64,000 bases of DNA from an uncultured Victivallales bacterium. Its GTDB lineage: Bacteria > Verrucomicrobiota > Lentisphaeria > Victivallales > UBA1829. Below are positions 21,962-50,602 of the stretch, one piece after another. Location of the stretch: positions 3,169 to 67,168 of the forward strand of contig CALXSJ010000001.1 of the NCBI GenBank assembly GCA_944391115.1, given 5' to 3'. The notes below the pieces were generated by a model, which saw only the letters and a program-made list of their open reading frames with translations, was not told the origin of the DNA and searched no databases. The position numbers were made by a program, and so were the translations under genes. Positions within the stretch are counted from its first letter, which is position 1. Every line of letters starts with the position of its first letter.

Positions 21962-22016
21962 TTGTTTTTTTCTTTTTCCGATGTATAATAGATACCAGTA
22001 TCTGATACCGGTATCT
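21962..22016 (+). promoter_or_regulatory. Sigma70 promoter plus tandem palindromic operator
   Basis: TTGTTT-N16-TATAAT (21984-89), followed by GATACCAGTATC (21991-22002) and the perfect palindrome GATACCGGTATC (22004-22015). Confidence 0.75.
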
Positions 22017-22032
22017 AAAGAGGATCTCTTTG

Positions 22033-23079
22033 ATGGATAAGAAATCGGAATACGTGATTCTTTACGAGGAGCTGAAGCAGCATATCCGCAACGGCGAAAT
22101 TCCGCCGGGGAACAAGCTGCCTTCGGAACGGGGCTTCATGGAGACCTACCGGATCAGCCGGACGACGGTCCGGAGCGCGCTGGCGCTGCTGGAGCGGGAG
22201 AAGTATGTGAAAAAGCAGCCCGGCGTCGGCTGCATCGTTCTTTCCCGGACGGAAAAGGAACGGCGCGAGAAACTGCGGATCGGGATTTCCCTGTCTTCCG
22301 CCTCGGATCAGACTTACCAGACGCTGCTCTACGAATCCCTGATGCATGCGGCGGAACGCCTGAACGCCGAACTGATTGTGAAGAAGAACCATGAACTGAT
22401 CCGGGGCGAGGGGATCGACGGCGCCGTTTTCATTGCGAATACAAGCCCGGACGAGCTCCGGCGGATGGAAAAGGAATACCGGTCCGGCTGCCCGGTCGTG
22501 TTCATCAACCGCATGCCGGTTCATCCGCAGTTCGCCTATTTTGCCGTGGACTATGAGAACACGTCGCGGAAACTGGTGGCGCGGCTTCTGCGGAACGGAG
22601 CTGAACGCATTGCCATGATCGGCGGGGCGGATCATCCGGGCGACCGGTATTTTGCGGATTATACAAGATCGCAGGGCTGGCGCGCGGCTTACCGCGAGCT
22701 TATGGGCCGTGTGCCGGAAGAACTGCTGTTCCGCACCGGGGAGCTGTATGCGGACCTGGATCTGGTGCGCCGCAGAATCGAACGGTTGCAGCCGCAGGTG
22801 TTTTTTGTTTCCTGCAGCAGTCTGCTGTCTGTTCTCTCCGTGATTCTGAAGCAGATGAACATTGCCGTGGGAAAAGATGTCAGTGTGATATGTTTCGACA
22901 ATGTGGAACGGATCGCGGAAAATATGCGGATTCCGATTTCCTGTTTGAAAATGCCGTTTGCCGAAATGACGGACCGGGCGCTCTCCTATCTTCGCGCCGC
23001 GCAGCGCGGGAATGTGCCTGTCCCGAAGGAGATTCTTGAGGCTCAGCTTGTTGTGGATCAGTGCCATTATCTGTTTTGA
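22033..23079 (+). CDS. GntR-HTH plus LacI-type sugar-binding domain regulator (AraR-like architecture)
   Basis: [23 protein letters not shown]...PGVG wHTH; periplasmic-binding-like C-domain ([14 protein letters not shown]). Confidence 0.9.
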
Positions 23080-23117
23080 GAGAAAAATTTCAAAATAAAA
23101 AACAACGGGAGGAAAAA

Positions 23118-23972
23118 ATGATGGGTGGGAGACGCATTGCGGTAGGCATGGAGAGAACGGAGCGGTTTTGCGCCGGAACGGGAGTCCTGATCCGGAGGAA
23201 TTTTACCTTGATAGAGCTCCTCGTCGTGATTGCGATCATCGCGATTCTGGCCAGTCTGCTGATGCCGGCATTGACCAAAGTCCGGGAGAAGGCCAGGGGA
23301 ATCCAGTGCGTCAGCAACCTGAAGCAGGCGGGAACGGGAATGCTGATGTATGCCATGGATTTCAATGACTATGCGCCGCTGTCCTACAACACCAGCGACA
23401 GCGGAAGCAAATACAAGCCCGGCTGGGCGGGCATTCTCGCCACTCCCATCGATTCCGCGGACAACAAGGATATTGCGCAGGGATATATCCGCAACTGGAA
23501 GGTTTTCCATTGTCCGTCAAGCAACAACATCCCCGCTCCGGACAAGTACAATTCCGCGAATACCTATGGCATCTGGGAAAGCTGGAACAATCCCGCGGCC
23601 CGTTATGTGGTCAGCCTTTCCGGCGGCAGGCAGTTTGTCGCCCTCCCGATTCGTCTGGTGAACAAGCTTTCCTCCACCATGTATGCGATCGACAATACAA
23701 AGGCCACTCCTTTCACCAATGTGAACGTCGGTTACTGGGCGTCCTCCGCCGACTCCACCGCATTGAGACACAACAATGTCGCGAACGCGGTCTGCTTCGA
23801 CGGGCATGTCAGCTCCAATACCCGGGGCGACTTCATCAGCAAGAGAATTTACCGGCATAACATGAAAGAGTCTTATTTTGTCGATTATGCAAAGTATCAG
23901 GAGGCGATGAAGGATTACCGCGGCTTCAGCAGCGGTTATCTCAGCAACAATATGCAGATCAATCTGCGTTGA
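23118..23972 (+). CDS. Prepilin-type N-terminal methylation protein with H-X9-DG motif (DUF1559-like)
   Basis: RRN|[24 protein letters not shown]...CVSNLKQ; FHCPS; [16 protein letters not shown] (H-X9-DG); RBS GGGAGG. Confidence 0.9.
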
Positions 23973-24054
23973 CTGTTTCACTGGATCTCCCGCCATGCTG
24001 TGGCGGGGTGTCACAGGCGATTGCGGGAAAACTGCAAAATAAACGGGAGTTTTC

Positions 24055-26379
24055 ATGCTGCTGAGCGGAATATTATTGAGTCTGTTTGTTCTCTGCGCGT
24101 CACTTTCCGGCGCGGAAACGGAGAAGGCCGTTGCGCTGGAGCGGATGCGGGAGGCGCGCGCGGGTTCTCTGATCCGCGGTCATCTGCTCGGCAGACAGGA
24201 CTGGAAAAAGGTCCTGGAGCTTCTGGACGCGGACGGTTCGTTCCGCGACCTGAAAGAGTTTGAAAAGGAGATCGCCGAAAAAGATCTGCTGCGGAAGGAG
24301 CTTTCCTACACGGAACCCCAGGCGCGGATTCTCGCCATGACCACGAAAGCCTTCCGGCGGCTCTGGACGCTTTCCGAGGCGCTTCGCAAGGGAGAAATTC
24401 CCGCCGGTCGCAGCGGGGATGTCAGACGGCGCATTTACAAGGCCGTTGCGCGTTACGGCGGCATCGAGGTGAACCGTCTCAGCACTCATGCCGGACGCTG
24501 GACGAATTCGGCATTCTTCATTCCGACCGTTGCCGTCAATCTTTACTTCGCCGACTTTCCCGCTATGAAAGATGTGGAAAAAGGGGTTCTGAAGGATCCC
24601 CTTGCCCTCGGCGCCTGCGAGATGCTGAAGAAAATCGCGTTTCAGGCGTGGAGCCAGCCGATGCGCGGCGACGCGACGGATCGGAACATCATCTCGCCGG
24701 AACGATTCCGCGGGAATACGCTCTATATCGGCGGCAACGCCGTAGGCTACCGCCCGCTGCTGGAAAGCGCGCTGCTCATGAGTTCTCCTGAAATGGTTGA
24801 TGTTGTCGCGGAAGTCGCACGGGCATCGCTCGGGATCACTTCCCAGACCACGAAGGGAATCTCATTCTGGGACGAGGGGTTTACGGCGGACGGCGCAGGA
24901 TGGGGGCATGGACGGCAGACACTCGTCTGGGGTTATCCGATCGACGGCGCGACCGGGGGGCTTTCCATTCTGAAAGAGCTCAAGGGAACCCCATGGGACA
25001 GGCCGTTTTCCCGGGAAATGGCGGAAAACTGCATGAACTTCATCCGGGGATCGAACTGGTATTATTACAAGGGATATCTGGCTCCTCTGGTCAGCCGCGA
25101 CAATTTCCGCACTTCATACGGCAGACAGGTTCCGATCCGGACCGCTTTCATGGCAAACTTCCTGCTTGCGCATTTCCCGGACAGTTTCACTCCGGACGAA
25201 CGGAAGGAACTGAAAGCGTTCTGCCGCGAGGCGCGGCGGATGGACATTTCCATGAAGGAATACGGCCCCGGCGTCTATTCCGGCATCCGCTATTTCTACA
25301 ACAACGACGACATGATCTGCAAGAATGATTCCTGGTACATGTTCCTGAACATGGCGTCCTGCCGCTGCGACGGACTCGAGAGCGGATCCCGCGGTTTCAA
25401 TATGTTTGCCAACGACGGCGCAACGTTTTTCGGGAGGACGGGCGGCGAGTTTTATGAAGTCTGCTCCGCGATGAATCCGAATTATTTCCCGGGCGTGACC
25501 GCGCGGATTCTTGAAACGCTGGAACCGGAAGCCAACTGGAGCGGCTATTGCAGCGCAAGGAATCTTGCCGCCGGCGTTACGGACGGGAAGGAGAATTTCG
25601 CCGCCGGTTTCCAGTTTGAGAAATACAACGCAACCTGGAAGTATTCCGAGTGGAAACGGAAAAAGCGTTTCGGGGACAATCCGCGCCTTTCCGGCGTTTC
25701 CGCCGTGAAATCCTGCTTCCGGTTCGGTGATCTTTTCATCCTGCTTGCCAGCGGGATCACGGATGCCGAACCCGCCAACGGCGGCCGGCTGGTCACGACG
25801 ATTGAACAAAGCGTCCGGAAATCCGACTTCGCGCAGCTGGACGGTGCGGGGCGCTGGTTCCGCAACAACGGCTTTGTCTACGGAATTCTTTCCGGGACGG
25901 GAAAAAGCATTGTCGAAACGCGTCCCATGAAACCCGAAAAAATGCACAGCGGCAACCGGAAGACGACCGGTTCCGTCCCCGTCTTCCAGTTCTGGATCGA
26001 CCACGGCGTCAATCCGGAAAACGCATCCTGCGCCTACCTGGTTTCCGCGAACGGTTCCGTTCCTGCGAAGTATCCGGCGATCCTGAGCAATACGCCGGGC
26101 GTGCAGGCGGCGCTTTCTCCGGATGGTCTGTGTGCCGGGGCTCTTTTCTTTTCGGAGAAATCCCGGCTCGAGACTCCGTGGGGAACCCTTTCCGTTTCGG
26201 CTCCCTGCGCGCTGCTGATTCAGCAGGAGAAGAGTCTCCTGCGCATTACGGCGGCTGACGCGGCGATGAACCGGAATCTTTCCGAACTATCCATCACGCT
26301 CGGAGCGCGGAAACTGAACCTCCCGCTGCCCCGGGAACCGTTCCGCGGGGCTCAGGCCGCAGCCTCCGTCGGGATCTGA
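24055..26379 (+). CDS. Polysaccharide lyase family 8-like (chondroitin/hyaluronate lyase) secreted enzyme
   Basis: Signal peptide; helical N-domain with GFTADGAGWGHGRQ...WGY; beta C-domains (FWIDHG, YLV, ILSNTPGVQAA, VSAPCALLI, ITAADA) typical of Lyase_8/Lyase_8_C. Confidence 0.75.
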   Translation: MLLSGILLSLFVLCASLSGAETEKAVALERMREARAGSLIRGHLLGRQDWKKVLELLDADGSFRDLKEFEKEIAEKDLLRKELSYTEPQARILAMTTKAFRRLWTLSEALRKGEIPAGRSGDVRRRIYKAVARYGGIEVNRLSTHAGRWTNSAFFIPTVAVNLYFADFPAMKDVEKGVLKDPLALGACEMLKKIAFQAWSQPMRGDATDRNIISPERFRGNTLYIGGNAVGYRPLLESALLMSSPEMVDVVAEVARASLGITSQTTKGISFWDEGFTADGAGWGHGRQTLVWGYPIDGATGGLSILKELKGTPWDRPFSREMAENCMNFIRGSNWYYYKGYLAPLVSRDNFRTSYGRQVPIRTAFMANFLLAHFPDSFTPDERKELKAFCREARRMDISMKEYGPGVYSGIRYFYNNDDMICKNDSWYMFLNMASCRCDGLESGSRGFNMFANDGATFFGRTGGEFYEVCSAMNPNYFPGVTARILETLEPEANWSGYCSARNLAAGVTDGKENFAAGFQFEKYNATWKYSEWKRKKRFGDNPRLSGVSAVKSCFRFGDLFILLASGITDAEPANGGRLVTTIEQSVRKSDFAQLDGAGRWFRNNGFVYGILSGTGKSIVETRPMKPEKMHSGNRKTTGSVPVFQFWIDHGVNPENASCAYLVSANGSVPAKYPAILSNTPGVQAALSPDGLCAGALFFSEKSRLETPWGTLSVSAPCALLIQQEKSLLRITAADAAMNRNLSELSITLGARKLNLPLPREPFRGAQAAASVGI

Positions 26380-26584
26380 CTGGAAAAAACGGCATTTGCC
26401 TGCGGCGTACCAGCCTTTCCGCAGCGTCCGGCGGACCTCTTGCCGTTCTGCGGCGCACAGAATATCCGGCATTTGTCATTGTTCCGGTTTTCAGGATTTC
26501 CAGACATTGCGTCCGGTCTGCCCGGAAGTTGCGGGACGGGACGGGGCGAGAGCCGGTATTCCACGGGAAAACAATCCGCGCAGC

Positions 26585-31108: not shown

Positions 31109-32377
31109 ATGAACAGGAAAATTCTTTTTTTATCTCTGGCCATTCTCGCCGTTCCGCCGGTCTTCTGCGATGAGGAGAAGCCCGTCGACAAACTGCGGTC
31201 TGAGGCGCAGTCCGGAAAACTGGATGCGTGCTTTTACCTCGGCAACGAGTATTTCTACGGAGAGAACCGGAAACAGAATTTCACGCTTGCCGCACACTGG
31301 TACCGCAAAGCGGCGGAAGGCGGGATTCCCGAGGCACAGTTCAATTATGCGCACTGTCTCGAAACCGGGCGCGGAACGGAAAAAGATCTCTTTGCCGCCT
31401 ATCAGTGGTACCGGAAGGCGGCGGACCGGGATTTCAAACCCGCGCTTTACATGTGTTCGCGCCTGACCGCCTCCGGCATTTATTCCAAAGACGGGAAGGC
31501 GCTTTTGCGCCCCTCGCAGGCGGGCGCGCTGGAGATCCTTGAACGCCTTGCCGCACAGGAGTTTGAAGCGGCGGAACTGGATCTTGCCTCCTATCTCCTG
31601 CGGCGCGATTCCCCGCTTTCGGAAAAGGCGCGCGCTTTTTCGATTCTTTCCAAGGTCACCGCCCGCAAAAAGTTCGATCCCGCCGCGCTCCGGATGCTGG
31701 CGGACTGTTACTACGGGGGATTCGGCTGTCCTTCCGATCCGGATAAAATGGCGGAGCTTCTGACCCGCGCTTCGGATCTCGGCGACGCCGAGGCGAAGGC
31801 GAAACTGGGTTTTCTGTATGAATCCGGACGCATCCTCGAAGCCGATCCTGAAAAGGCCGCCGCGTTTTACCGCGACGCGGCAAAACTGGGACACCCGATG
31901 GGGCAGTTCAAATACGCCGAGCAACTGTCCCGGGGGAAGCCGTCCGCCGATCAGCAGAAGGAGGCTCTGGAGTGGTACCGGAAGTCCGCGGATCAGCGTT
32001 GTGCCCAGGCTCTTTTCAAGCTCGGGCTGATTTATTTCGACGGCACTTTCGGCGTGGAGTCGGACAGGCAGCTGGCAGCCCAGTATTTCTATGAGGCTGC
32101 GCAGCTGGGATATCCCCGCGCCCAGTACAATCTTGCGGCGATGTTTGCCGACGGCAGCGGATTGAACAAGGATCTTCAGGCTGCGTTCTACTGGTTCATG
32201 CAGGCGGCACGGCGTCAGGACCCCGCGGCGCAGCGGCGAGTTGCGCTCTGTTATGCCGAAGGACTCGGGGTGGACAAGAATACGGCGAAGGCGCAGGAAT
32301 GGCTGCTCCGCGCCGCGCAGAACGGCGACATCATTGCGGCGAAAATGCTGGAGACCTCCCGTTTTTCCGTCTGGTGA
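31109..32377 (+). CDS. Secreted Sel1-like repeat protein
   Basis: Signal peptide, then ~9 SLR units (AAHWYRKAAEGG, AQFNYA, WYRKSADQ, AQYNLA, AFYWFMQAA). Confidence 0.92.
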   Translation: MNRKILFLSLAILAVPPVFCDEEKPVDKLRSEAQSGKLDACFYLGNEYFYGENRKQNFTLAAHWYRKAAEGGIPEAQFNYAHCLETGRGTEKDLFAAYQWYRKAADRDFKPALYMCSRLTASGIYSKDGKALLRPSQAGALEILERLAAQEFEAAELDLASYLLRRDSPLSEKARAFSILSKVTARKKFDPAALRMLADCYYGGFGCPSDPDKMAELLTRASDLGDAEAKAKLGFLYESGRILEADPEKAAAFYRDAAKLGHPMGQFKYAEQLSRGKPSADQQKEALEWYRKSADQRCAQALFKLGLIYFDGTFGVESDRQLAAQYFYEAAQLGYPRAQYNLAAMFADGSGLNKDLQAAFYWFMQAARRQDPAAQRRVALCYAEGLGVDKNTAKAQEWLLRAAQNGDIIAAKMLETSRFSVW

Positions 32378-32572
32378 CACGGCACGACAGGAGCCGGCGA
32401 TCCGGGAAACAAGCAGGCGGGGAATCGTCTGCGCGGGAAAATCCTGCAAAACCGCTCCGTCCGGCGCAAAAGTCCCGCCATCCGCCGGCATATCGCAGTG
32501 TTTCCGCTGGAAAAAATGGTGTTCCGGGTGTATATTCCCGCATGATCTGCTGACGCGGAGGATTTTACCGAT

Positions 32573-33532
32573 ATGGAAAACAAGAAGAAAAAAACGAAAA
32601 ACGCCCTTCTGATGGAAGTGGAATACCGGCTCTTTCTGCTTCTGCCGCTTCTGGTCCGGGCGCTGAGTCTGAAACAGGCCTATGCGCTGGCGAATGTCTG
32701 CGCATGGTTTTTCTATCTGCTGGATTTCAAGCACCGGAAGCGGGTGATTACCCATATCCTGCACAGCGGGATCCGGACTACCCTTCCGGAGGCGAAAGCG
32801 CTGGCAAAAGCCAATTTCCGCCATATGGTAAAGGTTTTTGTCGAGGTTGTGAAATTCGATCAGATCGTGACACCGGAAAGTTTGCATGAGCATCTGCGTT
32901 ATGCCTCCGATTCCCCCGAGCTGGACAAAATCATGGATCCGGAACATCCGGTCACGGCGATTCTGGCTTCCGCCCATCTCGGGAACTGGGAGCTTGCCGG
33001 CAATATGTATACGATATTTTCCGGTCAGAACCTCTGTTCGATCATGCGTCCTCTGGCGAACAGGAAGCTTGGAGAGTATTTCTATGCGCACCGCATGAGC
33101 CGGAAACATACGACCGTTTCCAAGGAAAAGGGGCTCCGGCCTCTGCTTGCGGCGCTGAACAAAGGCGACTCCATCGCCGTCGTCTCCGATCAGCACGCGA
33201 CCAGCCGCGAAGGAGTGGAAATCACGTTTTTCGGACATCCCGCAAGGGCGCATATGACGGTTGCGCTGCTGCATCTGAAAACGGGGCACCCGATTCTGCC
33301 GATTCTTGCGATCCGGGAGGATGACAGCTATCACTTCAAGCTTACCGGAACGGCGCCGATCCGCTACACGCCCATAGGAGACAAGGAACATGACATCCGG
33401 GAGATCACCCAGCTTTATTCCAATGCGTTCGAGGAACTGATCCGGAAATATCCCGACCAGTGGCTCTGGGCGCACCGCCGCTGGCTCGACTGCAACCGAA
33501 ATCACAAGCACAAGGATAACGAACATGATTAA
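32573..33532 (+). CDS. Lipid A biosynthesis acyltransferase (LpxL/HtrB family)
   Basis: SAHLGNWE, SDQH, FFGHPA, PDQWLWAHRRW. Confidence 0.9.
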   Translation: MENKKKKTKNALLMEVEYRLFLLLPLLVRALSLKQAYALANVCAWFFYLLDFKHRKRVITHILHSGIRTTLPEAKALAKANFRHMVKVFVEVVKFDQIVTPESLHEHLRYASDSPELDKIMDPEHPVTAILASAHLGNWELAGNMYTIFSGQNLCSIMRPLANRKLGEYFYAHRMSRKHTTVSKEKGLRPLLAALNKGDSIAVVSDQHATSREGVEITFFGHPARAHMTVALLHLKTGHPILPILAIREDDSYHFKLTGTAPIRYTPIGDKEHDIREITQLYSNAFEELIRKYPDQWLWAHRRWLDCNRNHKHKDNEHD

Positions 33533-34232
33533 AAAACCGGTCACGGACTTTGATGCGCGCAGGGTGCTGGTGTCACCCTCTCTGCTTGCCGCGGATTTTG
33601 CCGATCTCGCCAGTGAAATCAAACGTGTCGAGGCCGCGGGCGCCGATCTGCTGCATCTCGACATCATGGACGGCCATTTCGTGCCGAATCTCACGATGGG
33701 GCCGCCTGTGATCGCGGCGATCCGGAAGCACTCCATCCTGACGTTCGACACCCATCTGATGATTACCAATCCCCTCAAATACGTCAAACCGTTTTCCGCT
33801 GCGGGCGCGGACCATATCACATTTCATCTGGAGTCGGACGACAATCCGGACGAGACGATCCGGGCGATCCGCGCGGAGGGCTGTTCCGTCGGAATTTCCA
33901 TCAAGCCGGCCACCCCCGCTTCCGCGGTCGTCAATTATCTGGACAGGATTGATCTGGTGCTTGTGATGACCGTGGAGCCCGGATTCGGCGGGCAGTCGTT
34001 CATGGCGGACATGATTCCGAAGGTGGCGGAAATCCGCGCCCTGGCGGGGAAACTCAATCCGAAGCTTCATGTCGAAGTGGACGGAGGGATCGACGGCGAA
34101 ACGGTGAAGCGGATTGTTCCCGCGGGAGCCAACATGCTCGTTGCCGGAACCGCCGTTTTCCGCGCGCCGGACGGAGCCCAGGCGGCTGTCGAGCGTCTGC
34201 ACAACGCGCAGAAACTGCTTCCCGTTCACTGA
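33525..34232 (+). CDS. rpe: Ribulose-phosphate 3-epimerase
   Basis: SPSLLAADF, HLDIMDGHFVPNLTMG, DTHLM, VMTVEPGFGGQ, EVDGG. Confidence 0.98.
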   Translation: MIKKPVTDFDARRVLVSPSLLAADFADLASEIKRVEAAGADLLHLDIMDGHFVPNLTMGPPVIAAIRKHSILTFDTHLMITNPLKYVKPFSAAGADHITFHLESDDNPDETIRAIRAEGCSVGISIKPATPASAVVNYLDRIDLVLVMTVEPGFGGQSFMADMIPKVAEIRALAGKLNPKLHVEVDGGIDGETVKRIVPAGANMLVAGTAVFRAPDGAQAAVERLHNAQKLLPVH

Positions 34233-34259: not shown

Positions 34260-36005
34260 ATGAAGCAGCTCCGTTTTTTCCGGGATTATCTTGCAGAACG
34301 CTATGGAAAACCGCTCCAGCGGATTCCGTTCGATCTCGGACTTTCCTGTCCCAACCGGAATCCGGACGGTTCAGGCGGATGCGCCTTCTGCGCCGGAGAC
34401 GGTTCCGCGGCGAGGCATCTTTCGCCCGGCATGGGTCTTGCGGAACAGGCCCGGCGCGGCATCCGTTATGTCCGGGACCGCTATGCGTCGGACGGTCCCT
34501 ATCTTGCCTATTTCCAGTCTTTCACCAATACCTATGCCGGAGTGTCCGTTCTCCGGCGTCTTTATGAAGAGGCGCTTTGCACGGCGGATTACAAGGCCGT
34601 TCTGATTGCGACCCGTCCGGACTGCCTTTCCAGCGAGTGTGTGGAATATCTTGCCTCGCTGGGACGCCGTTATGAGGTCTGGGTGGAACTGGGGGTCCAG
34701 AGCGCCAATGATCTTACCCTCCGGAGAATCAACCGGGGACATGATTTCGCCGCCGTCGGGGATGCGGCGAGGCGTCTTGACGCGCATGGAATCAAAGTTG
34801 CCGCGCATGTCATTCTCGGACTGCCCGGAGAGACGGCGTCCGACTTCCGCGCGACCGCGGAGAAAATCGCGGCCCTTCCCTTTTCCGGGATCAAGGCGCA
34901 CAATCTTCTGGTTCTGAAAGGCACGGAGATGGCGCGGATGTTCCACCGCGGGGAGGTGACGCCGCTCAATGAATACGAATATGCCGACGCGCTCGCGGAT
35001 TTTCTGTCCGTTCTGCCGGAAAAGACCGTCGTGATGCGCCTCTGCGCCGATGCGGATTCTGCGGGGGTGATCGCTCCGAAGTGGTGGATGAAAAAAGGGC
35101 AGTTTCTTTCCATGTTCCGCACGGTTTTCGAGGCTCGAGCCGCCGGACGCGACGACGGAGTCCGCGCGGTGCGGACGGAGGACGGCTCCTATACGCTCTA
35201 TCATCCCGGATACCGCCAGCATTTTCACAGCGTTGCCGGTGCGCGGACGGAATCCTGGAAGAAATACATCGAGCCCTGCCGGATCGGGGAACGTCTGCAG
35301 GAAGGACGCTCCGTCACGGTTCTGGATATCGGATTCGGGATGGGATACAATGTCGCCGCCCTCGCGCAACTCGCCGAATGCACGGGCGCGGGCACGCTCC
35401 GCTGCATCTCTCTGGAGTCGGACCGCAATGCATTGCGCAATGCGCTTTTCCTTCCCGGGTTCCCGCGAAAGGATGTGCTTGAGACACTGGCTTCCGCCGG
35501 GTGTTACCGGAGCGCCTCCGCCCGGATCGAAATCGCCTGGGGCGATGCGCGGCATTTTGTGCAGGAGACCGGTGAAATGTTCGATTTCATTTTTCTTGAC
35601 GCGTTTTCCCCGGACCGGAATCCGGAGCTCTGGACACTGGATTTTCTCGCCGCCTTGAAACGGATTCTGAATCCCTTCGGCATTCTGGCAACCTATTCGA
35701 GCGCCTATCCGTTTCTCGGAGCGCTGCTCCGGACCGGCTTTTTTGTTTCAGAATCCGTTCCGTTCGGACGGAAGCGCGGCGGAACGGTTGCATCGTTTCA
35801 GACGCTCGAACACCTGACCCCGCTGCGGGAAAAGGACCGGCGCATCGCTCTGGAATCCACGGCGGGCGTTCCCTATCGCGATCCTTCGCTGGACTGGACC
35901 CGCAGGCAGATTCTTGCGGAACATGCCGCCCGGATTGCGGAACTTCGGGCCGCCGGTGTTCCGAAATGGTTCCATCCGGGTGTGAAACCGGTTTCGCAGT
36001 CATGA
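34260..36005 (+). CDS. TIGR01212 (YhcC/YtqA-type) radical SAM protein fused to an MnmD/MnmC-type SAM methyltransferase
   Basis: CPNRNPDGSGGCAFC, YFQSFTNTY, IATRPDC, ELGVQS; then TEDGSYTLY...HFHSVAGARTES, LDIGFGMGYN, FLDAFSPDRNPELW, ATYS, GRKR. Confidence 0.88.
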   Translation: MKQLRFFRDYLAERYGKPLQRIPFDLGLSCPNRNPDGSGGCAFCAGDGSAARHLSPGMGLAEQARRGIRYVRDRYASDGPYLAYFQSFTNTYAGVSVLRRLYEEALCTADYKAVLIATRPDCLSSECVEYLASLGRRYEVWVELGVQSANDLTLRRINRGHDFAAVGDAARRLDAHGIKVAAHVILGLPGETASDFRATAEKIAALPFSGIKAHNLLVLKGTEMARMFHRGEVTPLNEYEYADALADFLSVLPEKTVVMRLCADADSAGVIAPKWWMKKGQFLSMFRTVFEARAAGRDDGVRAVRTEDGSYTLYHPGYRQHFHSVAGARTESWKKYIEPCRIGERLQEGRSVTVLDIGFGMGYNVAALAQLAECTGAGTLRCISLESDRNALRNALFLPGFPRKDVLETLASAGCYRSASARIEIAWGDARHFVQETGEMFDFIFLDAFSPDRNPELWTLDFLAALKRILNPFGILATYSSAYPFLGALLRTGFFVSESVPFGRKRGGTVASFQTLEHLTPLREKDRRIALESTAGVPYRDPSLDWTRRQILAEHAARIAELRAAGVPKWFHPGVKPVSQS

Positions 36006-36893
36006 ACGCGGCGTACGGATTCTGCTGCGGAATTCCGATGGGCTGTAACGGGTTTCCTCCCGTTTGAAGGCCCGGGAGAAGGCCGCCGCGGAGCTGTATC
36101 CGCACAATGCGGCGATCTGGCTGATGTTCTGGTCGGAGGAGCGCAGAAGTCCCGCGGCGAACATCATTCTTCTGGAGCGGAGATATCTGCCGAGGCTTTT
36201 TCCAATCTGTTTTTTGAAGCACCGGCGCAGATTGCTCGCCGACACTCCCAGACGGCGGCTCAGTTCCGCGATCGTGATTTTCCGGTGCGGATTTTCCACG
36301 ATATACTGTGAGATTTTCCGGTAAAGTTCGCTGCCGCCGTCGGCATAATCCGCCTTGCGGAAGGTTTCCGGGGGGGCGGGCAGATTCTTCACTCGCAGAT
36401 GTTCCAGAAGTTCGCCCAGAAGATAAGGCGTCGTATTGATTTCCCGGTTCCTCTCCGGATAGTGCGCAAGAAAATCCCGGAGTGCGCGGAGCAGAAGGTT
36501 CCGGATTCCTGCATCCGTTTCCAGCACGGTTCCCCGCAGAACCTCCATTGTTTTTTCTTCGTCCCGCAGATAAAACGAGCAGAACAGCATGGAGCTTCCT
36601 CCGTCTTTTTCAGAGAGGATCCTGTGCGATTCGCCGGGGAAAACCAGATAGAGCTGGAACGGTTTCAGGGAGCGGAGGCGCTTATTGACTTCAAGCCGGG
36701 CGTTTCCGGCAAGAAGACATGCCAGGATGTAGCGGTTGTGGAAAAACGTATTGGTATCACGGTTTCTCCGGCGGTAATAGAATTGAATGCGGTATGGCAG
36801 GAACGGAGGAAAATCCGGGAATCCGGGAGAGGAATAGGCAAAATCGGGAAGGGATTCCGCCGCTTTCAGACATTTTTCAGAAAAGGATTTCAT
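36000..36893 (-). CDS. AraC-family transcriptional regulator
   Basis: Cupin (FFHNRY, PGESHRI) plus HTH (ISQIAALCGYSSAAAFSRAFKRE...SPSEFR). Confidence 0.92.
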   Translation of the reverse strand: MKSFSEKCLKAAESLPDFAYSSPGFPDFPPFLPYRIQFYYRRRNRDTNTFFHNRYILACLLAGNARLEVNKRLRSLKPFQLYLVFPGESHRILSEKDGGSSMLFCSFYLRDEEKTMEVLRGTVLETDAGIRNLLLRALRDFLAHYPERNREINTTPYLLGELLEHLRVKNLPAPPETFRKADYADGGSELYRKISQYIVENPHRKITIAELSRRLGVSASNLRRCFKKQIGKSLGRYLRSRRMMFAAGLLRSSDQNISQIAALCGYSSAAAFSRAFKREETRYSPSEFRSRIRTPRS

Positions 36894-36932
36894 TTTTGAT
36901 CACTTCTGCAAAGAATATAATCACTTTTATCA

Positions 36933-36960
36933 TTGTCATCGTGCGTTATTGTAGTATAAT
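36933..36960 (+). promoter_or_regulatory. Sigma70 promoter for the pilin-like operon
   Basis: TTGTCA-N16-TATAAT in the spacer divergent from AraC. Confidence 0.6.
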
Positions 36961-37007
36961 GATAAGCGGAAGTCAAATGGAAAAGCCATGCAGGAAGGAG
37001 TTTTTTC

Positions 37008-37793
37008 ATGCGAATCTGCCGTCTATGCGCCCCATCTCCGGGTTCCGCTGTTTTCAAGCGGGGCGGGGCAGTGTCCGTTTTGCGGAGAACATACTTTTCT
37101 CTGATAGAACTTCTGGTTGTGATTGCGATTATCGCGGTTCTGGTCTCGATGCTGCTGCCGGGACTTCAGAAGGCGAAAGAAGCCGCGCGCCGGATCAGCT
37201 GCAACAGCCATCTGAAACAGTTCGGAACCGCATTTCATTCCTATGTCGGCGACAGCCGGGATTTTTTCCCGCCGGCGGATCTCAACGATTTGAGCGGGGA
37301 GGAAATCAACAAGAACTACTGGAACTGGGCATGGATGTTCCAGCGGGAAAAATACATTCCGACGGGAAAAATTTATAAATGCCCCACAGCCGCGGGAATC
37401 ATGCCTCCGGAATCCAATTATCATCGTGATCTTGACGTCTTTATCAATACGGTCGGCCCGGGCAGCGCCGCGTCATGGACTTTCATCGGTTACGGTTATA
37501 ACAACAATTATGTCGGGTCCCATAAAAATGTTCTCGGATCCGGAGATCCCAGACGCTGGATTCCAGTGAAACTCTCCGAAATGAAAAAGACATCGGACTG
37601 TTTCCTTCTGGCCGAAACAAAAACGGAATTCAATGCCGGCTCCTATGTCTCCTATTCCAACGGGCTGTATATTCACGATCTGCACAGCGGCGGAACCAAT
37701 CTCCTTTTCGCCGACGGCCACACGGGATATCTCAAAAACGGAAAAACGCACTTGAACAGCGCCGTCACGAAAAAATATTTCACCTGGGAGTGA
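37008..37793 (+). CDS. Prepilin-type N-terminal methylation protein with H-X9-DG motif (DUF1559-like)
   Basis: RTY|[24 protein letters not shown]...CNSHLKQ; YKCPT; [14 protein letters not shown] (H-X9-DG); RBS AAGGAG. Confidence 0.9.
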
Positions 37794-37795
37794 AG

Positions 37796-40699
37796 ATGAA
37801 AACGAAACATTGCGGATTGCTTTTGACAGGAATCCTTTCGGCTTTGACCGCCTCCGCTTCCGGAGCGGAATGTCATCTTCCCTGCATGCCGCCTGCGCCG
37901 GACGCCGCGGCTGCGCTTGAGCGCATGAAGCGGGAGGCACCGCGCCGCCGGGCGCATACGGAACGGCCGTTTCTCTTTGTGCGGACGCAGCTGAAATACG
38001 GATTGGAACGGGACGACTATCTGCATAAATGGCTGGACCGTCCTCTGATGCAGGACTCCTCGCTGGCGAAAGCGGACGATCCCCGGCATTTCATCAATGA
38101 AAACTCTTATCGCCGGATGGCTGCGATGATCCGTTTCGGCGGCATGGACGGAGCCGCCTTTTTCCCGGCGACTTCCGGACGGCGCGATCTTTTTTCCCGT
38201 TCGCTTCTGCCGGAAGCGAAGCTGCCTGTTCTCGTGGAACTGGTTCCCGTGGGCAGGAATCCGCTGGAAACTGACCTTGAAATGGCGGGACTTGCCATGA
38301 AAGCGCCGAACGCTTTCCGCATCAACGGGAAAATTGTCCTGACGCGCTATCCCGGAGGAACACCGGAATATTCCAGGGAACTCAGGCAGAAACTCCGGCA
38401 GCGTTATGGAGATCATTTCTTGTATCTGCCCTATCTGCATTTCAAAACATTTCAGCCGGACAGAAAACTGGATGGAAAAACCATCGAACGCATGAAAGAG
38501 GAGCTGCGCACCGGACTGCGCGCGGCGGACGGCATCTTTTTCAGCGACCGGAGTTCTGTCTGGAAACGCAGATTCAACCTGGATTTTGAGCAGCAGGTCA
38601 TCATCCCGATTTTGAACAGCGTCTATTCCGAAAAGGAGTTTCAGAACAAGATCCTGGGGTATGCCGTGGTTGCGGAACACTCGAATTCCTACCGTTTCAC
38701 GCATACCCTGGACTGCACCGGGACCACCTTCCTGCGGCACAAGCTGGAGGCCGCGCGCTCCCTGCGCCCCGATTTCATCGTCATGACGGAATGGGATGAA
38801 CAGAATGAACATACGCACTTCCGCCCGACGGTCTGCAACTCCTTTTCCACGCAGCGGATCGTCCGCGCCTATGCAGCGCTTCTGGCCGGCGGGAAGCATG
38901 CGCCGCTTCCCGGAGACGATTTGTCCATTCCCAATCTGATTGTCAGCTTCCGCCGGAATCTGAGCGCGGGGGAATGGCTCGAGATGGAAGTCGCGAATGT
39001 TCCGGACGGGACGCTGGATGACGCGGTGTTCCGGATTGATGCGCGTCTGAAGGATCTCAGGGGAAATACGGTAAAAACGTTTTCTCCCCTGTCGCTTCGC
39101 GGCAGCGCGCTCGCGGAGTCCGTCTGGTTCCGGATGCCTTGCGCGGAACTGCTCCGGCATCAGGTTGTCCGGCCGGAAATTTCCGTATCCCGGGGCGGGA
39201 AACGCGTTGTTTTTTCCGACGCCATGGCTGCGATTGAGATTCGCGCCAACTGGAATATGGATTACAAATGGGTGAAACATCCGCTGCGCGATCTTCCGAA
39301 AGGTATCCGGAGCGAGCTTGGCGCGGCGGAAATGCGGCCGGATGGAACGCTGCTGCTGAAAGGAAGAGTTTCCTCCCCGAAAAAACTGCGCAGCGTGGAG
39401 ATTCTGGAAGGGAGCAATGTTGTTTATTCCCATGCGAAACGGGGATTTCCGAAAGAGGATGGCGACACCGTCATCCTGAGCATCGCTCATCAGGCTTCGA
39501 AGAAACGTGTCTTCAACGGCACGATTGCGTTGAACCATGGAGTGGAAGCTGTGAAAGGCGCCCGCGGCGTCAGGTTCCGGGATGGAAAGCTGCTCTACCG
39601 GAATGTGGAATTCAGCCTGTATCCATTTTCCGTCTATCTGGCAGTGAAGCGAAAGGATATGGAAAGCGGAGAACTGATCGTGGATCTGCCTCCGGTGCGC
39701 GGCAGAATCCGAACGGCGGATCTGATGAAACAGGGGATTTTCGGCATCGGCGGTCCGGACGGTTCCAATCTGGTCGTTTCCCGTTTTCTCTCCCAGGAGT
39801 CCATGCCGGAACCGCTATTTGAAAATACGGCGGAGTTTTCCGTGACTGTCCGCCCTCCGGACAAAAAGGCGGTCTATTCAATTCTCGCTGTGGACGAGGA
39901 TTATGGAATTTACCGGGGAAGCGTCCTTTCTCTTTACCGGCCGTCGAACAGAACCCGTGTCATTCACGTGTTTGACATGGAAAGGGAACAGGTGTTTCCC
40001 GTGGAGGCGGACGAGAATCTGCTGACTGATTTCGAATACCGTTTTCTGCCTCAGTGCGGGTCTGTGGTCCCCTGCGCGGCGGGGAGCAAGTACAGCGGCA
40101 TTCTCGGCGGATTTGTCCCTCTGGCGACGGGATACGGTTCCGGCGAAGCCGGATACGGCAATCTGGTGTGGCGATCCCTGCGCGCGGATCTCCCGGGTGT
40201 GGAAAATCAGGCTCCGGAGTATGTCCGGGAATCCGATGGAAGCTGGAGTCTGCAGTTCCGGGACTGCAATTATGTCAGTCTGCCTCTGCATGTGGTTCCC
40301 CCTTACTGCGGATTTGAACTTGAACTCAAAGTCATGCCGGATGCGCTGCCGGAGCGGACTCAAACTCTTTTCAGCAGCGGAATCAACGGGTTTAACCTGA
40401 CACTTTCCGGCGGCAGAGTGTCCGCTGAAATATTCTCCGGCAACCGCTTCTACCGGAAAGGCGGACGTTTTGCGACGGTGAGGGCCTCCGCGGACGGCGT
40501 CAGGGCGAAGGAATGGAACATCATCCGGGTGCTGTTCAGCGGAAGCTGCCTGGAAGTCGAGGTGAACGGAATTTCCGGAAGGAAAGTGTCTTTCTCCGGC
40601 TGTCTCATGCTGCCGCGGGCAACCGCTCTGGGCGCCGCCCAAACGGGGAACCGTTTTTTCCGGGGCAGAATTGCAGGCGTGAAGTGCCAGCCCCGCTGA
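37796..40699 (+). CDS. Large secreted protein: putative TIM-barrel glycoside-hydrolase-like N-domain and C-terminal LamG/ConA-like domain
   Basis: Signal peptide; DFIVMTEWDEQNEHTHFRP resembles the GH71/GH99 WNEwxExT motif; C-terminal beta-sandwich (WNIIRVLF, LEVEVNG, LGAAQ...FFRGRI). Confidence 0.6.
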   Translation: MKTKHCGLLLTGILSALTASASGAECHLPCMPPAPDAAAALERMKREAPRRRAHTERPFLFVRTQLKYGLERDDYLHKWLDRPLMQDSSLAKADDPRHFINENSYRRMAAMIRFGGMDGAAFFPATSGRRDLFSRSLLPEAKLPVLVELVPVGRNPLETDLEMAGLAMKAPNAFRINGKIVLTRYPGGTPEYSRELRQKLRQRYGDHFLYLPYLHFKTFQPDRKLDGKTIERMKEELRTGLRAADGIFFSDRSSVWKRRFNLDFEQQVIIPILNSVYSEKEFQNKILGYAVVAEHSNSYRFTHTLDCTGTTFLRHKLEAARSLRPDFIVMTEWDEQNEHTHFRPTVCNSFSTQRIVRAYAALLAGGKHAPLPGDDLSIPNLIVSFRRNLSAGEWLEMEVANVPDGTLDDAVFRIDARLKDLRGNTVKTFSPLSLRGSALAESVWFRMPCAELLRHQVVRPEISVSRGGKRVVFSDAMAAIEIRANWNMDYKWVKHPLRDLPKGIRSELGAAEMRPDGTLLLKGRVSSPKKLRSVEILEGSNVVYSHAKRGFPKEDGDTVILSIAHQASKKRVFNGTIALNHGVEAVKGARGVRFRDGKLLYRNVEFSLYPFSVYLAVKRKDMESGELIVDLPPVRGRIRTADLMKQGIFGIGGPDGSNLVVSRFLSQESMPEPLFENTAEFSVTVRPPDKKAVYSILAVDEDYGIYRGSVLSLYRPSNRTRVIHVFDMEREQVFPVEADENLLTDFEYRFLPQCGSVVPCAAGSKYSGILGGFVPLATGYGSGEAGYGNLVWRSLRADLPGVENQAPEYVRESDGSWSLQFRDCNYVSLPLHVVPPYCGFELELKVMPDALPERTQTLFSSGINGFNLTLSGGRVSAEIFSGNRFYRKGGRFATVRASADGVRAKEWNIIRVLFSGSCLEVEVNGISGRKVSFSGCLMLPRATALGAAQTGNRFFRGRIAGVKCQPR

Positions 40700-40756
40700 T
40701 GCTCCCTCTTTCCCTTGGGCATTTCGTTCTGCAGAAAATGCCTGTTCCGTTTCCCG

Positions 40757-41072: not shown

Positions 41073-41132
41073 AAGCGAACGTTTGGCTGGATGGGTGCTG
41101 ATGGGTTTTCAATTATTTCAGGAGCAATCTGT

Positions 41133-42026
41133 ATGAAACGGACAACAACAGCGGGGATTTTGCTGCTTGCCTCCGCCTGTCTCATGCTTTCCGCGCAGGG
41201 GCCGGGCAGACAGCGTTTCCGGAACGGGGAGAATGAGCGTCCCCGGCAGGACAATACCGCGGAATGGGCTGAGGTTCAGGCAACGCTCAAAAAGAAGTAT
41301 CCGGAAAAATTCAAGGAAATTGAAAAACTTCAGGCGGGCAATCTCTATGCTGCGCTGGAGAAAATGCGCGAGCTTGCGTCTGAAGCCTCTGTGACGCTTC
41401 CGTCCGCGAGGCGGGGGGCGCGCGGCGACCGGCGTTTCGGCATGGGCGGCGGCAGGAATGACCGGCGCTCCGGCATGGGGATGTTTTCGAATATGAGGAA
41501 TCAGCGCGCATCTGTGGAAGCGGAACTGAAGAAAAAATATCCCGCGGAATACGCGGAAATTGAAAAACAGCGGATTCAGGCGGAAAATAAGCTGGAAGAA
41601 CTGGCGAAAAAGGCAAATGTCGAGCTGCCCGCGACCATGGAATCCGTTCAGCTTAAAATGACGGAACTGAAGAATTCCGGCAAGTTCAAGGCGGAATTCG
41701 ATGAAATCGAAAAACTTCGTGCGGAGGATCCGCGCGCGGCTTACCTGAAGACCTGGGAACTGATGCAGAAGGCCGGGGTGAAAATGCCGGAAATGCGGCG
41801 TTCCGGGTCTGGCGGATTCAGCCATGCCGGAGCCGGCGAGGATGCCGTTCCGCGCACGCCGAGAGTGAATCCTGTGCGCCAGATCATGGAGCTGCGGAAA
41901 AAATATCCCGGTGAAATGCAGAAACTGGATGCCTTGCGCCGGAATGATCCGGAAGCCTACCGGAAAGGCGTTGTGGAGCTTCTGAAAAAATCCGAAGCCG
42001 AACGCGGCTCCGGATCGAAACCGTAA
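41133..42026 (+). CDS. Secreted/periplasmic helical repeat protein at the head of the T2SS cluster
   Basis: RBS GGAG, signal peptide, four related repeats (LKKKYPEKFKEIEKL, LKKKYPAEYAEIEKQ, KFKAEFDEIEKLRAEDP, LRKKYPGEMQKLDALRRNDP). Confidence 0.75.
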   Translation: MKRTTTAGILLLASACLMLSAQGPGRQRFRNGENERPRQDNTAEWAEVQATLKKKYPEKFKEIEKLQAGNLYAALEKMRELASEASVTLPSARRGARGDRRFGMGGGRNDRRSGMGMFSNMRNQRASVEAELKKKYPAEYAEIEKQRIQAENKLEELAKKANVELPATMESVQLKMTELKNSGKFKAEFDEIEKLRAEDPRAAYLKTWELMQKAGVKMPEMRRSGSGGFSHAGAGEDAVPRTPRVNPVRQIMELRKKYPGEMQKLDALRRNDPEAYRKGVVELLKKSEAERGSGSKP

Positions 42027-42045
42027 CGCTGCAGGGAAGCCTTTC

Positions 42046-43272
42046 ATGAAATTTTCCACAATGAAAGAGTTCGCCGTCCTGCTTTTCGCTCCGGGCAGTG
42101 TCCGCTGCTGCTCGTTCCGGCGGGACGCAAAAGGGGTCCGCCTGAAGGCTTTCGCCCATTGCACCCATGATGAAACCGATCCGGCGAAGGCGTGGAAACA
42201 GGTGCTGCGCGAAACCTCGTACAGCCGTGTCTGTCCGCTGATTCTGTCCGGTGCGCTCAAGGGGGGGACGTTCTTCCGCTGCGCCGGGGTCCGGCTTGCC
42301 CCGAAGGCGATGCGCGGCGCGCTGGAATTTGAACTTCCGCAGAGACTGCTCCAGGATACGGCGAATTTTGAACTGGAATTTGTCACGCGTCCTGAGGCGG
42401 CCGAAGGCGAGACGATTCCCGTCAACGTCTATGCGTTTCCCGCCACGGACAAGGAACGTCTGGCCGCGATGCTGACCCAGAGCATCGGAAAGGCGGATTA
42501 TTTTGTCTATCCGCTTCTGGCGCTCCGGGAATCCGACGGGCCCGTTTATCTGCCCGGCATTGAAAGCGATTTCTATTTTTCCGAAGGCGGATGGCATCCG
42601 GTTGCGGAACTTCCGCCGGACTGGCTTTCCTTCTGGGAGAAGGAGATGCGCGGCAGTTTTCTGCTTCCGGAAGAACCGGAATTCAAGCTTTCCGAATGGC
42701 TCGGGTGTCTTCTCTGCGCGCGTCTTGCCGCCGCCGCGGACGTGAAGCATACGTTCGCCGGGCTCAATGTGCTGCCCCGGCAGCTGCGGCCGAGCCGTTT
42801 GCGCAACCAGCTGCGCCTGACCGCGCTGCTGCTGGTTCTGCTGGCCGTGAACTTCGCATGGGGACTGGCCGGCACCCTTTCCGGCAATCACAGGGAGTAT
42901 TCCCGGCTGACTGCCGCCCGGAACCGTCTCCGCACGGAGGTTATGACATCGCAGCGGAAGCTCAAGACGGCGGAAAAGGAGCTGCGCGAGCTTACGCGCG
43001 TCATCAACCAGTCGCCCGGGGAGCGCGATGTGATAGGAAAGCTGGCGCGCTTTTCCGAGGTCCTGCCCAACAATGTCATGGTGACCAATCTGCGCTGGAC
43101 CGACAGCAGTGTCGACCTGACGCTGCGCAGCGAGGCGGAGAGCCTGAACGTTCCGGAGATGATCCGCCCCCTGAAATTCTGGAAGATTGAGCAGATCCAG
43201 CAGCGGCGGAGGAACAACGACACGACGAACACGATCATGCTGAAACTCGTTTCCTCGGAGGAGCGAAAATGA
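42046..43272 (+). CDS. GspL/PilN-like inner-membrane assembly protein
   Basis: Long cytoplasmic N-region, TM (LTALLLVLLAVNFAW), coiled coil, PilN-like C-domain (LPNNVMVTNLRW...LTLRS); position in the T2SS operon. Confidence 0.7.
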   Translation: MKFSTMKEFAVLLFAPGSVRCCSFRRDAKGVRLKAFAHCTHDETDPAKAWKQVLRETSYSRVCPLILSGALKGGTFFRCAGVRLAPKAMRGALEFELPQRLLQDTANFELEFVTRPEAAEGETIPVNVYAFPATDKERLAAMLTQSIGKADYFVYPLLALRESDGPVYLPGIESDFYFSEGGWHPVAELPPDWLSFWEKEMRGSFLLPEEPEFKLSEWLGCLLCARLAAAADVKHTFAGLNVLPRQLRPSRLRNQLRLTALLLVLLAVNFAWGLAGTLSGNHREYSRLTAARNRLRTEVMTSQRKLKTAEKELRELTRVINQSPGERDVIGKLARFSEVLPNNVMVTNLRWTDSSVDLTLRSEAESLNVPEMIRPLKFWKIEQIQQRRRNNDTTNTIMLKLVSSEERK

Positions 43273-43952
43273 ATGATAAGATCAAGGCGTTTCTGAAAAC
43301 GGGAAAGGGCAAGCTTGCGGTTGCCTGTGGCGCGCTCCTTCTCAGCTGGATTTTCCTTCTGACCCAGCTGGGCGGAAGCTTTTCCTCCTGGTTTCCGAAC
43401 GAGGCGCGAAAGGAAGCGCTGCGCAAGGAGATCAAAAAACTGGAAGCCGAACAGGCGGAACAGCAGAAAAAGCTCCGGGAAATGGACGAGGTTCAGAGGA
43501 AATACCGCGGCATGATCGAGAACAGCTGGCAGTATGAACGCGACGGTGATCCGGAACTGCTGCTCCGCCGGGCGGTGGAGATTACGGCAAAGGAAACGGA
43601 AATCAGCCTCAACAACCTCGGTTCCGTTCGTACATCGCGCATCAATGACGATTTTTATTTCGCGGAACTGGACGTTTCTTTCAGCGCGCCGTTTGAAAAT
43701 CTGATGCATTTCATTGCGAAACTGCAGGCGAACAAGCCGGCGCTTCCCTGGCGGCGCATCACGGCGAATCTGTCGATGCGTCCGCCGCATCAGCAGAATA
43801 CCCGCGTCGTGTCGAACACCGCGACAACCGCCGCCACCCAGACTACGCTCATGTTCAACGGGACGATCCGCGTGATCGCCTTTGACGGCGAACTGCCGCC
43901 CGAGGGAAAGACGCTTGCGCGCATTCCGCAGCGTCGGGGAGGAAGAAAATGA
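43269..43952 (+). CDS. GspM/PilO-like protein
   Basis: N-terminal TM, coiled coil, ferredoxin-like C-domain (ELDVSFSAPFENLMHFIAKL); ATGA overlap. Confidence 0.7.
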   Translation: MNDKIKAFLKTGKGKLAVACGALLLSWIFLLTQLGGSFSSWFPNEARKEALRKEIKKLEAEQAEQQKKLREMDEVQRKYRGMIENSWQYERDGDPELLLRRAVEITAKETEISLNNLGSVRTSRINDDFYFAELDVSFSAPFENLMHFIAKLQANKPALPWRRITANLSMRPPHQQNTRVVSNTATTAATQTTLMFNGTIRVIAFDGELPPEGKTLARIPQRRGGRK

Positions 43953-44851
43953 AAACAGCTTTGATCCTGTTCAATGTCTTTCTTGCCGCAATGCTTCTCT
44001 GGGGGGTTGCCTCCCATTTCAAGTCTGCGGATAAAACCGTTTACACCGTCAAGAAACATTCCTCGGTCCGTCCGGTGAAGACTCCCGCAAAGTCGGTTTT
44101 GAAAGTATCCGAGACACGCAAAAAAGAGATGACGCCGGACGAGCAGCTTGCAAAGATCATCGAAACCAATGTCTTCAATGCCGACCGCTGCCCCAATGCG
44201 AGCACGCCCGGCAGAAATACCCGTGTCGAACTTTCTCTGGTCGGAACATTTAAAATCGGGGACTGCGTGGGCGCCATTATCAAGCAGAAGGGATCCGGCG
44301 CTCCCGCGCGGCGGAATTTCCCGTTTCCCCAGGGCGGTCCGCTTCCGCCGGGAATCATGCCTCCAGGACGGCAGATGGGAATCTCGCGAAATGACAGAAC
44401 GGAAAATGTCAACACCACCAACACGCGCGGTGCGGCGCGCGGCGTCCGGGGACAGATGAAGGCGATCTTTTCCAATATCACCGTGGCGGCCGCAGGCAAT
44501 CAGGTTTCCTACAAGCAGTATGTCCGGCTCGGAGAGACGCTCAGCAACGGGTATACGCTGGCCGAAGTCAACCGCGACAGCGTGCTTCTGACCCGCGGCA
44601 GTGACAAACTTGAACTCGAACTGCTTGACGCTTCAAAGAATGCTCCGCAGACGGTGCGGCGGACGAACCGGCGCGTGAACACCGGCACCCAGATGCTCCG
44701 GACTCTCCAGAACATGCAGCGCATGCAGATGTTCCAGAACAGACAGATGATAAACATCATGCGCCAGAACATGAACCGGCAGCAGGCGCAGCCGCAGCAG
44801 AGCGCCACCGGCAACATGCGGACGAACCGTGCACGCACCGGACGACGATAG
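43949..44851 (+). CDS. GspC-like protein (HR domain, no PDZ, Q/M/R-rich tail)
   Basis: N-terminal TM, NVFNADR, LSLVGT...GAII, VRLGETLSNGYTLAEVNRDSVLL. Confidence 0.65.
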   Translation: MKTALILFNVFLAAMLLWGVASHFKSADKTVYTVKKHSSVRPVKTPAKSVLKVSETRKKEMTPDEQLAKIIETNVFNADRCPNASTPGRNTRVELSLVGTFKIGDCVGAIIKQKGSGAPARRNFPFPQGGPLPPGIMPPGRQMGISRNDRTENVNTTNTRGAARGVRGQMKAIFSNITVAAAGNQVSYKQYVRLGETLSNGYTLAEVNRDSVLLTRGSDKLELELLDASKNAPQTVRRTNRRVNTGTQMLRTLQNMQRMQMFQNRQMINIMRQNMNRQQAQPQQSATGNMRTNRARTGRR

Positions 44852-44886
44852 AAAGATGCAGTAAAATAACATAGGATGCCCCAGAA

Positions 44887-48856: not shown

Positions 48857-48871
48857 CGCGGAGGATTCCGG

Positions 48872-50598: not shown

Positions 50599-50602
50599 CG
50601 AA

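Follow-up and report, generated by a model that had tools for sequence, protein, structure and literature searches.

An MnmL-MnmC2 fusion gene in an uncultured Victivallales bacterium and its predicted role in oxygen-independent modification of the tRNA wobble uridine

MnmL, MnmC2 and the catalogued fusions

The nucleoside 5-methylaminomethyl-2-thiouridine (mnm5s2U), found at the wobble position of tRNA, tunes the decoding of split codon boxes. In Escherichia coli the methyltransferase domain MnmC2 is joined, within the protein MnmC, to the flavin adenine dinucleotide (FAD) oxidase domain MnmC1, and the two domains act independently. Here we analysed a gene of an uncultured Victivallales bacterium in which MnmC2 is joined instead to MnmL, a radical S-adenosylmethionine (SAM) protein of the YtqA/YhcC family. 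The gene is complete and lies at positions 34260..36005 (+ strand) of a stretch of 64,000 nucleotides, to which we refer as the window. We put at roughly 85% the probability that it encodes a bifunctional MnmL-MnmC2 enzyme that would finish the wobble modification mnm5(s2)U34 without O2.

In E. coli the two activities reside on separate proteins. YhcC is the MnmL of this organism: it is needed for the anaerobic demodification of 5-carboxymethylaminomethyl-2-thiouridine (cmnm5s2U), it catalyses in vitro the conversion of cmnm5s2U to the 5-aminomethyl form (nm5s2U), and its C33A variant does not complement (10.64898/2026.05.18.725915). According to the same study MnmC1 requires O2, the YhcC product is methylated by MnmC2, and organisms with only MnmL tend to be anaerobes (10.64898/2026.05.18.725915). 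The same two O2-independent reactions, demodification by MnmL and then methylation by the MnmC2 domain, are expected of the window protein, which carries the same cysteine motif as YhcC. In Bacillus subtilis and Streptococcus mutans a radical SAM demodifying enzyme, MnmL (YtqA), is likewise paired with a methyltransferase, and the two are often adjacent or fused, but that methyltransferase, MnmM (YtqB), belongs to a family unrelated to the MnmC2 (PF05430) of the window protein.

It was through arrangements of this kind that MnmL was identified. YtqA-MnmC2 fusions and the clustering of ytqA with mnmM were the Rosetta-stone clue by which Jaroch et al. identified YtqA as MnmL, with genetic confirmation in S. 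mutans and B. subtilis (10.1101/2023.12.21.572861). These authors catalogued YtqA-MnmC2 fusions in three COG genomes and 70 InterPro entries, Lentisphaerae and Victivallales among them, which answers in the affirmative a question left open by an earlier note on this locus, made from the sequence alone: whether the fusion was already on record. Their supplementary data S3/S4A include fusions of Victivallis vadensis (A0A2U1AFG2, 570 aa), Victivallales CCUG 44730 (WP_106054069, 569 aa) and Lentisphaerae GWF2_45_14 (577 aa), and further ones of GWF2_44_16 (579 aa; our homologue P0092 is assigned to this organism), Kiritimatiella glycovorans (597 aa), Sulfurospirillum barnesii (558 aa), Malaciobacter and others (10.1101/2023.12.21.572861); Margulisbacteria and Desulfobulbia are also represented among the catalogued fusions. 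The window protein is like these in domain order, size and phylum; it differs in species and in a short C-terminal extension described below, and in nothing architectural. It is an unremarkable further member of a published family, whose architecture was already known and gives no new insight. How anaerobes complete mnm5s2U without the O2-dependent MnmC1 is a question that was answered between 2023 and 2026, with the fusion family serving as a comparative-genomics clue.

Architecture, constraint and distribution of the fusion

The gene is one uninterrupted open reading frame (ORF) of 581 aa, with an ATG start and a TGA stop, exactly as the earlier note had read it. Pfam searches of the protein recognized Radical_SAM (residues 39-202), Radical_SAM_C (PF16199; residues 209-285, 73.7 bits) and Methyltransf_30 (PF05430; residues 418-512, 92.9 bits against a gathering score of 22). 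The N-terminal MnmL (YtqA/YhcC, TIGR01212) radical SAM domain, at 34260..35114 (+; residues 1-285), is colinear with the entire E. coli YhcC (36% identity over 279 aa, E = 2e-58). It was matched by TIGR01212, the NCBIfam equivalog model whose present name is 'tRNA modification radical SAM protein MnmL/YtqA', at 278.7 bits against an equivalog cutoff of 180, the match spanning residues 6-294 of the protein and positions 4-293 of the 302 in the model. Within this domain the [4Fe-4S] cluster-binding motif C30-X10-C41-X2-C44 (34347..34391, +) corresponds to C33, C45 and C48 of YhcC, and so the YhcC/YtqA-type domain with its CX10CX2C motif, also described in the earlier note, was recovered by profile and by alignment.

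The C-terminal half is an MnmC2 (MnmD, DUF752, PF05430) SAM-dependent methyltransferase domain of the stand-alone Aquifex type, which occupies 35172..35972 (+; residues 305-571) with its C-terminal helical tail included; the protein ends in an unconserved extension of ~8 aa. Stand-alone MnmC2 of Aquifex aeolicus (DUF752; PDB 3VYW) is its best match in both sequence and fold, and aligned end to end with residues 297-560 (263 residues, 34% identity, E = 2.4e-41), helical tail beyond the Pfam domain included, in keeping with the claim that the methyltransferase is complete. The Aquifex protein forms a 308-aa polypeptide of its own, and the YtqA/YhcC homologue of that organism lies on another gene. 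The methyltransferase domain of the fusion resembles the Aquifex type more than it does the E. coli one, and a D-x-F-x-P-x2-N-P-x-x-W core is common to it and to E. coli MnmC. No FAD/DAO (MnmC1) domain was found in the fusion protein by Pfam and NCBIfam profile searches. The PRK01747 models of bifunctional MnmC, whose cutoffs are 540 and 600 bits, stayed far under these at 79.8 and 50.9, and the match was confined to the methyltransferase part at their N-terminus; the absence of the oxidase domain reported from the first reading thus stands.

Conservation was evaluated in an alignment of 86 fusion homologues. The three cluster cysteines are invariant in all 86, as are 44 further positions of the radical SAM domain. 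In the methyltransferase domain, the SAM-binding motif I G358-F-G360-M-G362-Y-N364 (35331..35351, +) keeps G358, G360, G362 and N364 in every sequence, and the acidic residue of motif II, E386, is likewise invariant and aligns with E. coli MnmC. The catalytic/substrate motif D447-A-F449-S-P451-x2-N454-P-E-L-W458 (35598..35633, +) is invariant or nearly so; it aligned with residues 178-190 of E. coli MnmC, where its counterpart is DGFAPAKNPDMW. Taken over the whole protein, the invariant or nearly invariant positions comprise the cluster cysteines, R260, K279, G358-x-G360-x-G362-x-N364, E386, D447-x-F449, N454-PELW458 and G503-R504. The mean column entropy was 1.30 bits in the radical SAM domain and 1.27-1.37 bits in the methyltransferase, compared with 2.66 bits in the interdomain linker (35115..35171, +; residues 286-304). 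The equal values in the two domains indicate comparable purifying selection on both halves, as expected of a bifunctional enzyme. The linker itself is unconserved and varies in length, with 18-32 residues among the homologues. Two of them (P0062 and P0074, 634-635 aa) carry, exactly at this place, an insert of ~55 residues rich in acidic residues, serine and proline, so the linker tolerates large insertions.

Modelling with AlphaFold2 on the same alignment gave a mean predicted local distance difference test score (pLDDT) of 92.1 and a predicted template modelling score (pTM) of 0.78, with pLDDT dropping to 78-82 in the linker. The best PDB matches of the model in a Foldseek search were 3VYW, with a template modelling (TM) score of 0.74-0.75, the N-terminal domain of E. 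coli YfcK (2QY6, TM 0.72) and radical SAM domains of Elp3; the PDB copy searched contained no structure of MnmL. For the N-terminal half the closest solved fold is that of the radical SAM domain of Elp3 (e.g., PDB 6IAD and 5L7J), and Elp3 is likewise a radical SAM enzyme that modifies C5 of U34 in tRNA. Unlike the fusion, however, it has a GNAT/KAT domain and makes cm5U, and the identity is only ~20%; Elp3 is a superfamily neighbour of the radical SAM half that belongs to another family. As a single chain with a confident model, the fusion could be a practical target for studying the structure and mechanism of radical demodification.

Searching 5.8 billion proteins, we obtained at least 120 clusters, whose identity to the window protein lies at 49-99%. 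Nearly all of them are of ~570-600 aa and have all three Pfam domains; those with the fusion architecture are mostly from Lentisphaerota, and the named ones are from Lentisphaeria. Species-representative genomes provided 29 loci, in all of which the two halves are contiguous on one strand. These belong to Lentisphaeria, Victivallales, V. vadensis, one Kiritimatiellota metagenome-assembled genome (MAG), one 'Verrucomicrobia' MAG and Helicobacter sp. 15-1451. The nearest genome representative of the window protein is an uncultured Lentisphaeria MAG (81% identity), which places the window in that lineage. The Helicobacter locus (L033, 6001-7581) has the same architecture at an identity of 33-34%. 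Public names of these proteins are inconsistent: one (P0013) is called 'bifunctional protein MnmC', others (P0029, P0031 and P0082) only 'TIGR01212 family radical SAM protein'. That MnmL and MnmC2 are combined can be gathered from neither name. The former is imprecise because the relatives lack the FAD (MnmC1/DAO) domain. Annotations across the family could be corrected to 'bifunctional MnmL/MnmC2'.

Proposed function and its alternatives

Architecture, intact motifs and equal constraint on the two domains, as shown here, together with the reactions known from the unfused orthologues, led us to infer that the fused protein would carry out both steps. In the proposed scheme MnmE and MnmG, encoded elsewhere in the genome, would install the cmnm5 group on (s2)U34 of tRNAs such as those for Glu, Lys and Gln, and the host would presumably make cmnm5s2U. 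Using a [4Fe-4S] cluster bound by C30, C41 and C44, the radical SAM domain at the N-terminus would then cleave SAM reductively, and the MnmL domain would remove the carboxymethyl group by radical chemistry, yielding nm5(s2)U34 without O2. We suggest that this may proceed by abstraction of a hydrogen atom at the glycyl C-alpha followed by hydrolysis of the imine, a proposal of our own that does not appear in the text of the 2026 preprint. In the last step the free amine would be methylated, with a second SAM, by the Aquifex-type MnmC2 domain at the C-terminus to give mnm5(s2)U34.

A radical SAM domain would thereby take the place of MnmC1, the O2-dependent FAD oxidase of E. coli MnmC, which would suit an anaerobe. 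The earlier note had proposed such a replacement as an oxygen-independent route; this is the conclusion reached for MnmL in 10.64898/2026.05.18.725915, and for the fused protein it is what the sequence predicts. The note had also taken the fusion as evidence on the function of the TIGR01212 family, and this view has prevailed, the family now being established as the enzyme that demodifies cmnm5s2U to nm5s2U (10.1101/2023.12.21.572861; 10.64898/2026.05.18.725915).

Several observations weigh against a bifunctional enzyme of this pathway. The fusion scored 102.9 bits with the NCBIfam model tRNA_MNMC2 (NF033855) and so missed the equivalog-domain cutoff of 136; the match comprised residues 314-512 and covered positions 2-207 of the 209 in the model. 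No mnmE, mnmG or mnmA gene was found in the window, the whole of which was annotated. The YhcC residue K21, a conserved residue of the cleft, aligns with P18 of the fusion, which is flanked by the basic residues K17 and R21 (85/86). For the other basic residue of the proposed tRNA cleft, R279 of YhcC, the alignment gives K279, which is invariant among the fusions. Jaroch et al., for their part, wrote of the combination of MnmL with MnmC2 that it 'awaits experimental validation' (10.1101/2023.12.21.572861). In favour of the proposed enzyme, MnmA, MnmE and MnmG were scored as present in the Victivallales strain CCUG 44730, and the fusion is both its sole COG4121 protein and its sole protein of the YtqA family (10.1101/2023.12.21.572861).

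The alternative that survives best, improbable as we consider it, is that the radical SAM half represents a subgroup of TIGR01212 whose function differs from that of MnmL and performs another radical reaction, on tRNA or on another substrate, while the MnmC2 half alone takes part in the mnm5 pathway. The identity of just 36% to E. coli YhcC and the lack of conservation of K21 would fit such a divergence, and Jaroch et al. cautioned that function may not be the same across YtqA/YhcC subgroups and that transfer of annotation needs testing; nevertheless, they rated the subgroups that bear fusions as highly likely isofunctional (10.1101/2023.12.21.572861). Their caution is weakened by the case of YhcC, whose E. 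coli subgroup was once thought non-isofunctional and has since turned out to be a true MnmL (10.64898/2026.05.18.725915). Covalent joining to the enzyme of the next step, across at least 120 clusters, is also hard to explain if the radical SAM half does something else.

We give still less credence to the idea that the host uses the ammonium route only, with MnmEG making nm5s2U directly and the radical SAM half being vestigial, or else a module for tRNA binding or regulation. Invariance of the cluster cysteines and of 44 other radical SAM positions, under a constraint equal to that on the methyltransferase half, argues against it. The Aquifex type of the methyltransferase half can be cited in its favour, as the example given in the literature of MnmC2 working without a demodifying enzyme is Aquifex (10.1101/2023.12.21.572861). 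Yet A. aeolicus itself encodes a YtqA/YhcC homologue (317 aa), which is entered in the supplementary data of the same study beside its stand-alone MnmC2 (308 aa) (10.1101/2023.12.21.572861), and these two proteins are the unfused counterparts of the two halves of the fusion. In E. coli, moreover, the supposed product of the ammonium route has been attributed to YhcC (10.64898/2026.05.18.725915). Taken with that preprint, the Aquifex pair questions the ammonium-only view.

The earlier note had itself raised the possibility of a sequencing artefact. That a lost stop codon or a frameshift, introduced in sequencing or assembly, joined two neighbouring genes is refuted, and nothing was found in its favour. 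The identical 581-aa product occurs on at least five independent contigs that come from different samples, among them the 325,782-bp ENA scaffold (ERZ28614196 scaffold_16) that contains the window. The architecture, with all three Pfam domains, recurs in at least 120 clusters and is contiguous at 29 loci of Lentisphaerota, Kiritimatiellota and a Helicobacter, and cultured strains with the fusion are listed in the literature. Among the homologues, one protein of 465 aa (P0064) is identical to another (P0005) until about residue 355 and continues with unrelated sequence. It looks like an assembly frameshift that breaks the fusion, opposite in sense to the artefact just considered, and not like a natural truncated form.

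Relatives, origin and genomic neighbourhood

Searches with the methyltransferase half returned 4,818 representative relatives at E <= 1e-3. Among the best 150, about 21 were of fusion length, with the domain at the C-terminus, and the rest were mostly stand-alone proteins of ~270-300 aa. Around stand-alone MnmL genes no MnmC2-like gene was found within ±6 kb (0 of 51 loci). In a crude, unbootstrapped neighbour-joining tree of the radical SAM halves the fusions of the Planctomycetes-Verrucomicrobia-Chlamydiae (PVC) group formed one clade, which includes the window protein and the fusions of Lentisphaerae GWF2_45_14 (L008) and V. vadensis (L022), both with 50-51% full-length identity to it. The Helicobacter fusion fell outside, and stand-alone MnmLs of Desulfobacterales and Brocadia (~38-44%) are closer to the radical SAM half of the window protein than it is. 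This position may reflect independent fusion events or horizontal transfer. The tree of the methyltransferase domain, also unbootstrapped, is muddied by short, possibly fragmentary proteins.

A wider proposal can be built on these relationships, which we regard, in all its parts together, as rather doubtful. The two active sites would work on one bound tRNA and pass the nm5 intermediate from one to the other in a coupled manner, unlike the independent domains of E. coli MnmC; the fusion would have arisen more than once, in PVC bacteria and in Campylobacterota (Helicobacter, Sulfurospirillum), whose fusions lie apart in a crude tree; and organisms now described as 'MnmC2-only' users of the ammonium route would rely on MnmL. 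The last part is argued from the Aquifex type of the methyltransferase half and from the MnmL homologue that Aquifex encodes.

Directly upstream of the fusion gene, on the same strand, lie a gene for an LpxL-like lipid A acyltransferase (32573-33532, +) and rpe (33525-34232, +), which overlap by 8 bp; 27 bp separate rpe from the fusion gene. The three genes are likely co-transcribed, as a promoter-like site is present upstream of the LpxL-like gene (32508-32536) and none was found in the 27-bp gap. This arrangement is kept in only one subclade of the fusion loci. We considered a functional link of the fusion to the lpxL-like and rpe genes and rejected it on account of this limited synteny, treating the arrangement as incidental operon membership. 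At its 3′ end the fusion gene overlaps by 6 bp a convergent gene of the AraC type. Annotation of the whole window revealed no mnmC1, and a tRNA scan of it no tRNA genes.

The remainder of the window is ordinary Lentisphaerae content. It includes genes for methionyl-tRNA synthetase (MetRS), PepF, an extracytoplasmic function (ECF) sigma/anti-sigma pair and AmtB together with P-II. A type II secretion cluster is also present, as are modules for glycan utilisation that contain SBP_bac_10 proteins and a polysaccharide lyase of family 8. The type II secretion cluster (~41100-52600, +) comprises a GspC-like gene, the secretin gene gspD (44887-47280), the ATPase gene gspE (47267-48856), gspF (48872-50089) and gspG, along with several pseudopilin-like genes, some of them without a Pfam match. 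One layout, in which a regulator is followed by an SBP_bac_10 protein with a prepilin-like N-terminus and by a large enzyme, occurs twice. The copy at 22000-26400 consists of GntR/LacI, SBP_bac_10 and the polysaccharide lyase of family 8, and the copy at 36000-40700 of AraC, SBP_bac_10 (37008-37793) and a 969-aa protein (37790-40699) without a Pfam match.

Unusually long antisense ORFs (621-999 aa) are present on the - strand at 31130-33820, 37673-39538, 44509-47508, 47240-49930 and 15676-18255, opposite genes with good support: Sel1/LpxL-like/Rpe, the 969-aa ORF, gspD, gspE/F and PepF, respectively. The GC content of the genome is only ~57%, and the ORFs probably represent an effect of codon usage that depletes antisense stop codons. 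Flavodoxin is a usual reductant of radical SAM enzymes, and a flavodoxin-like ORF is found near one edge of the window (63225-63803, -); near the other edge a TSCPD-domain ribonucleotide reductase, class II-like and O2-independent, is represented by its C-terminal end (396-1166, +). Both are distant from the fusion gene, and both fit an anaerobic lifestyle.

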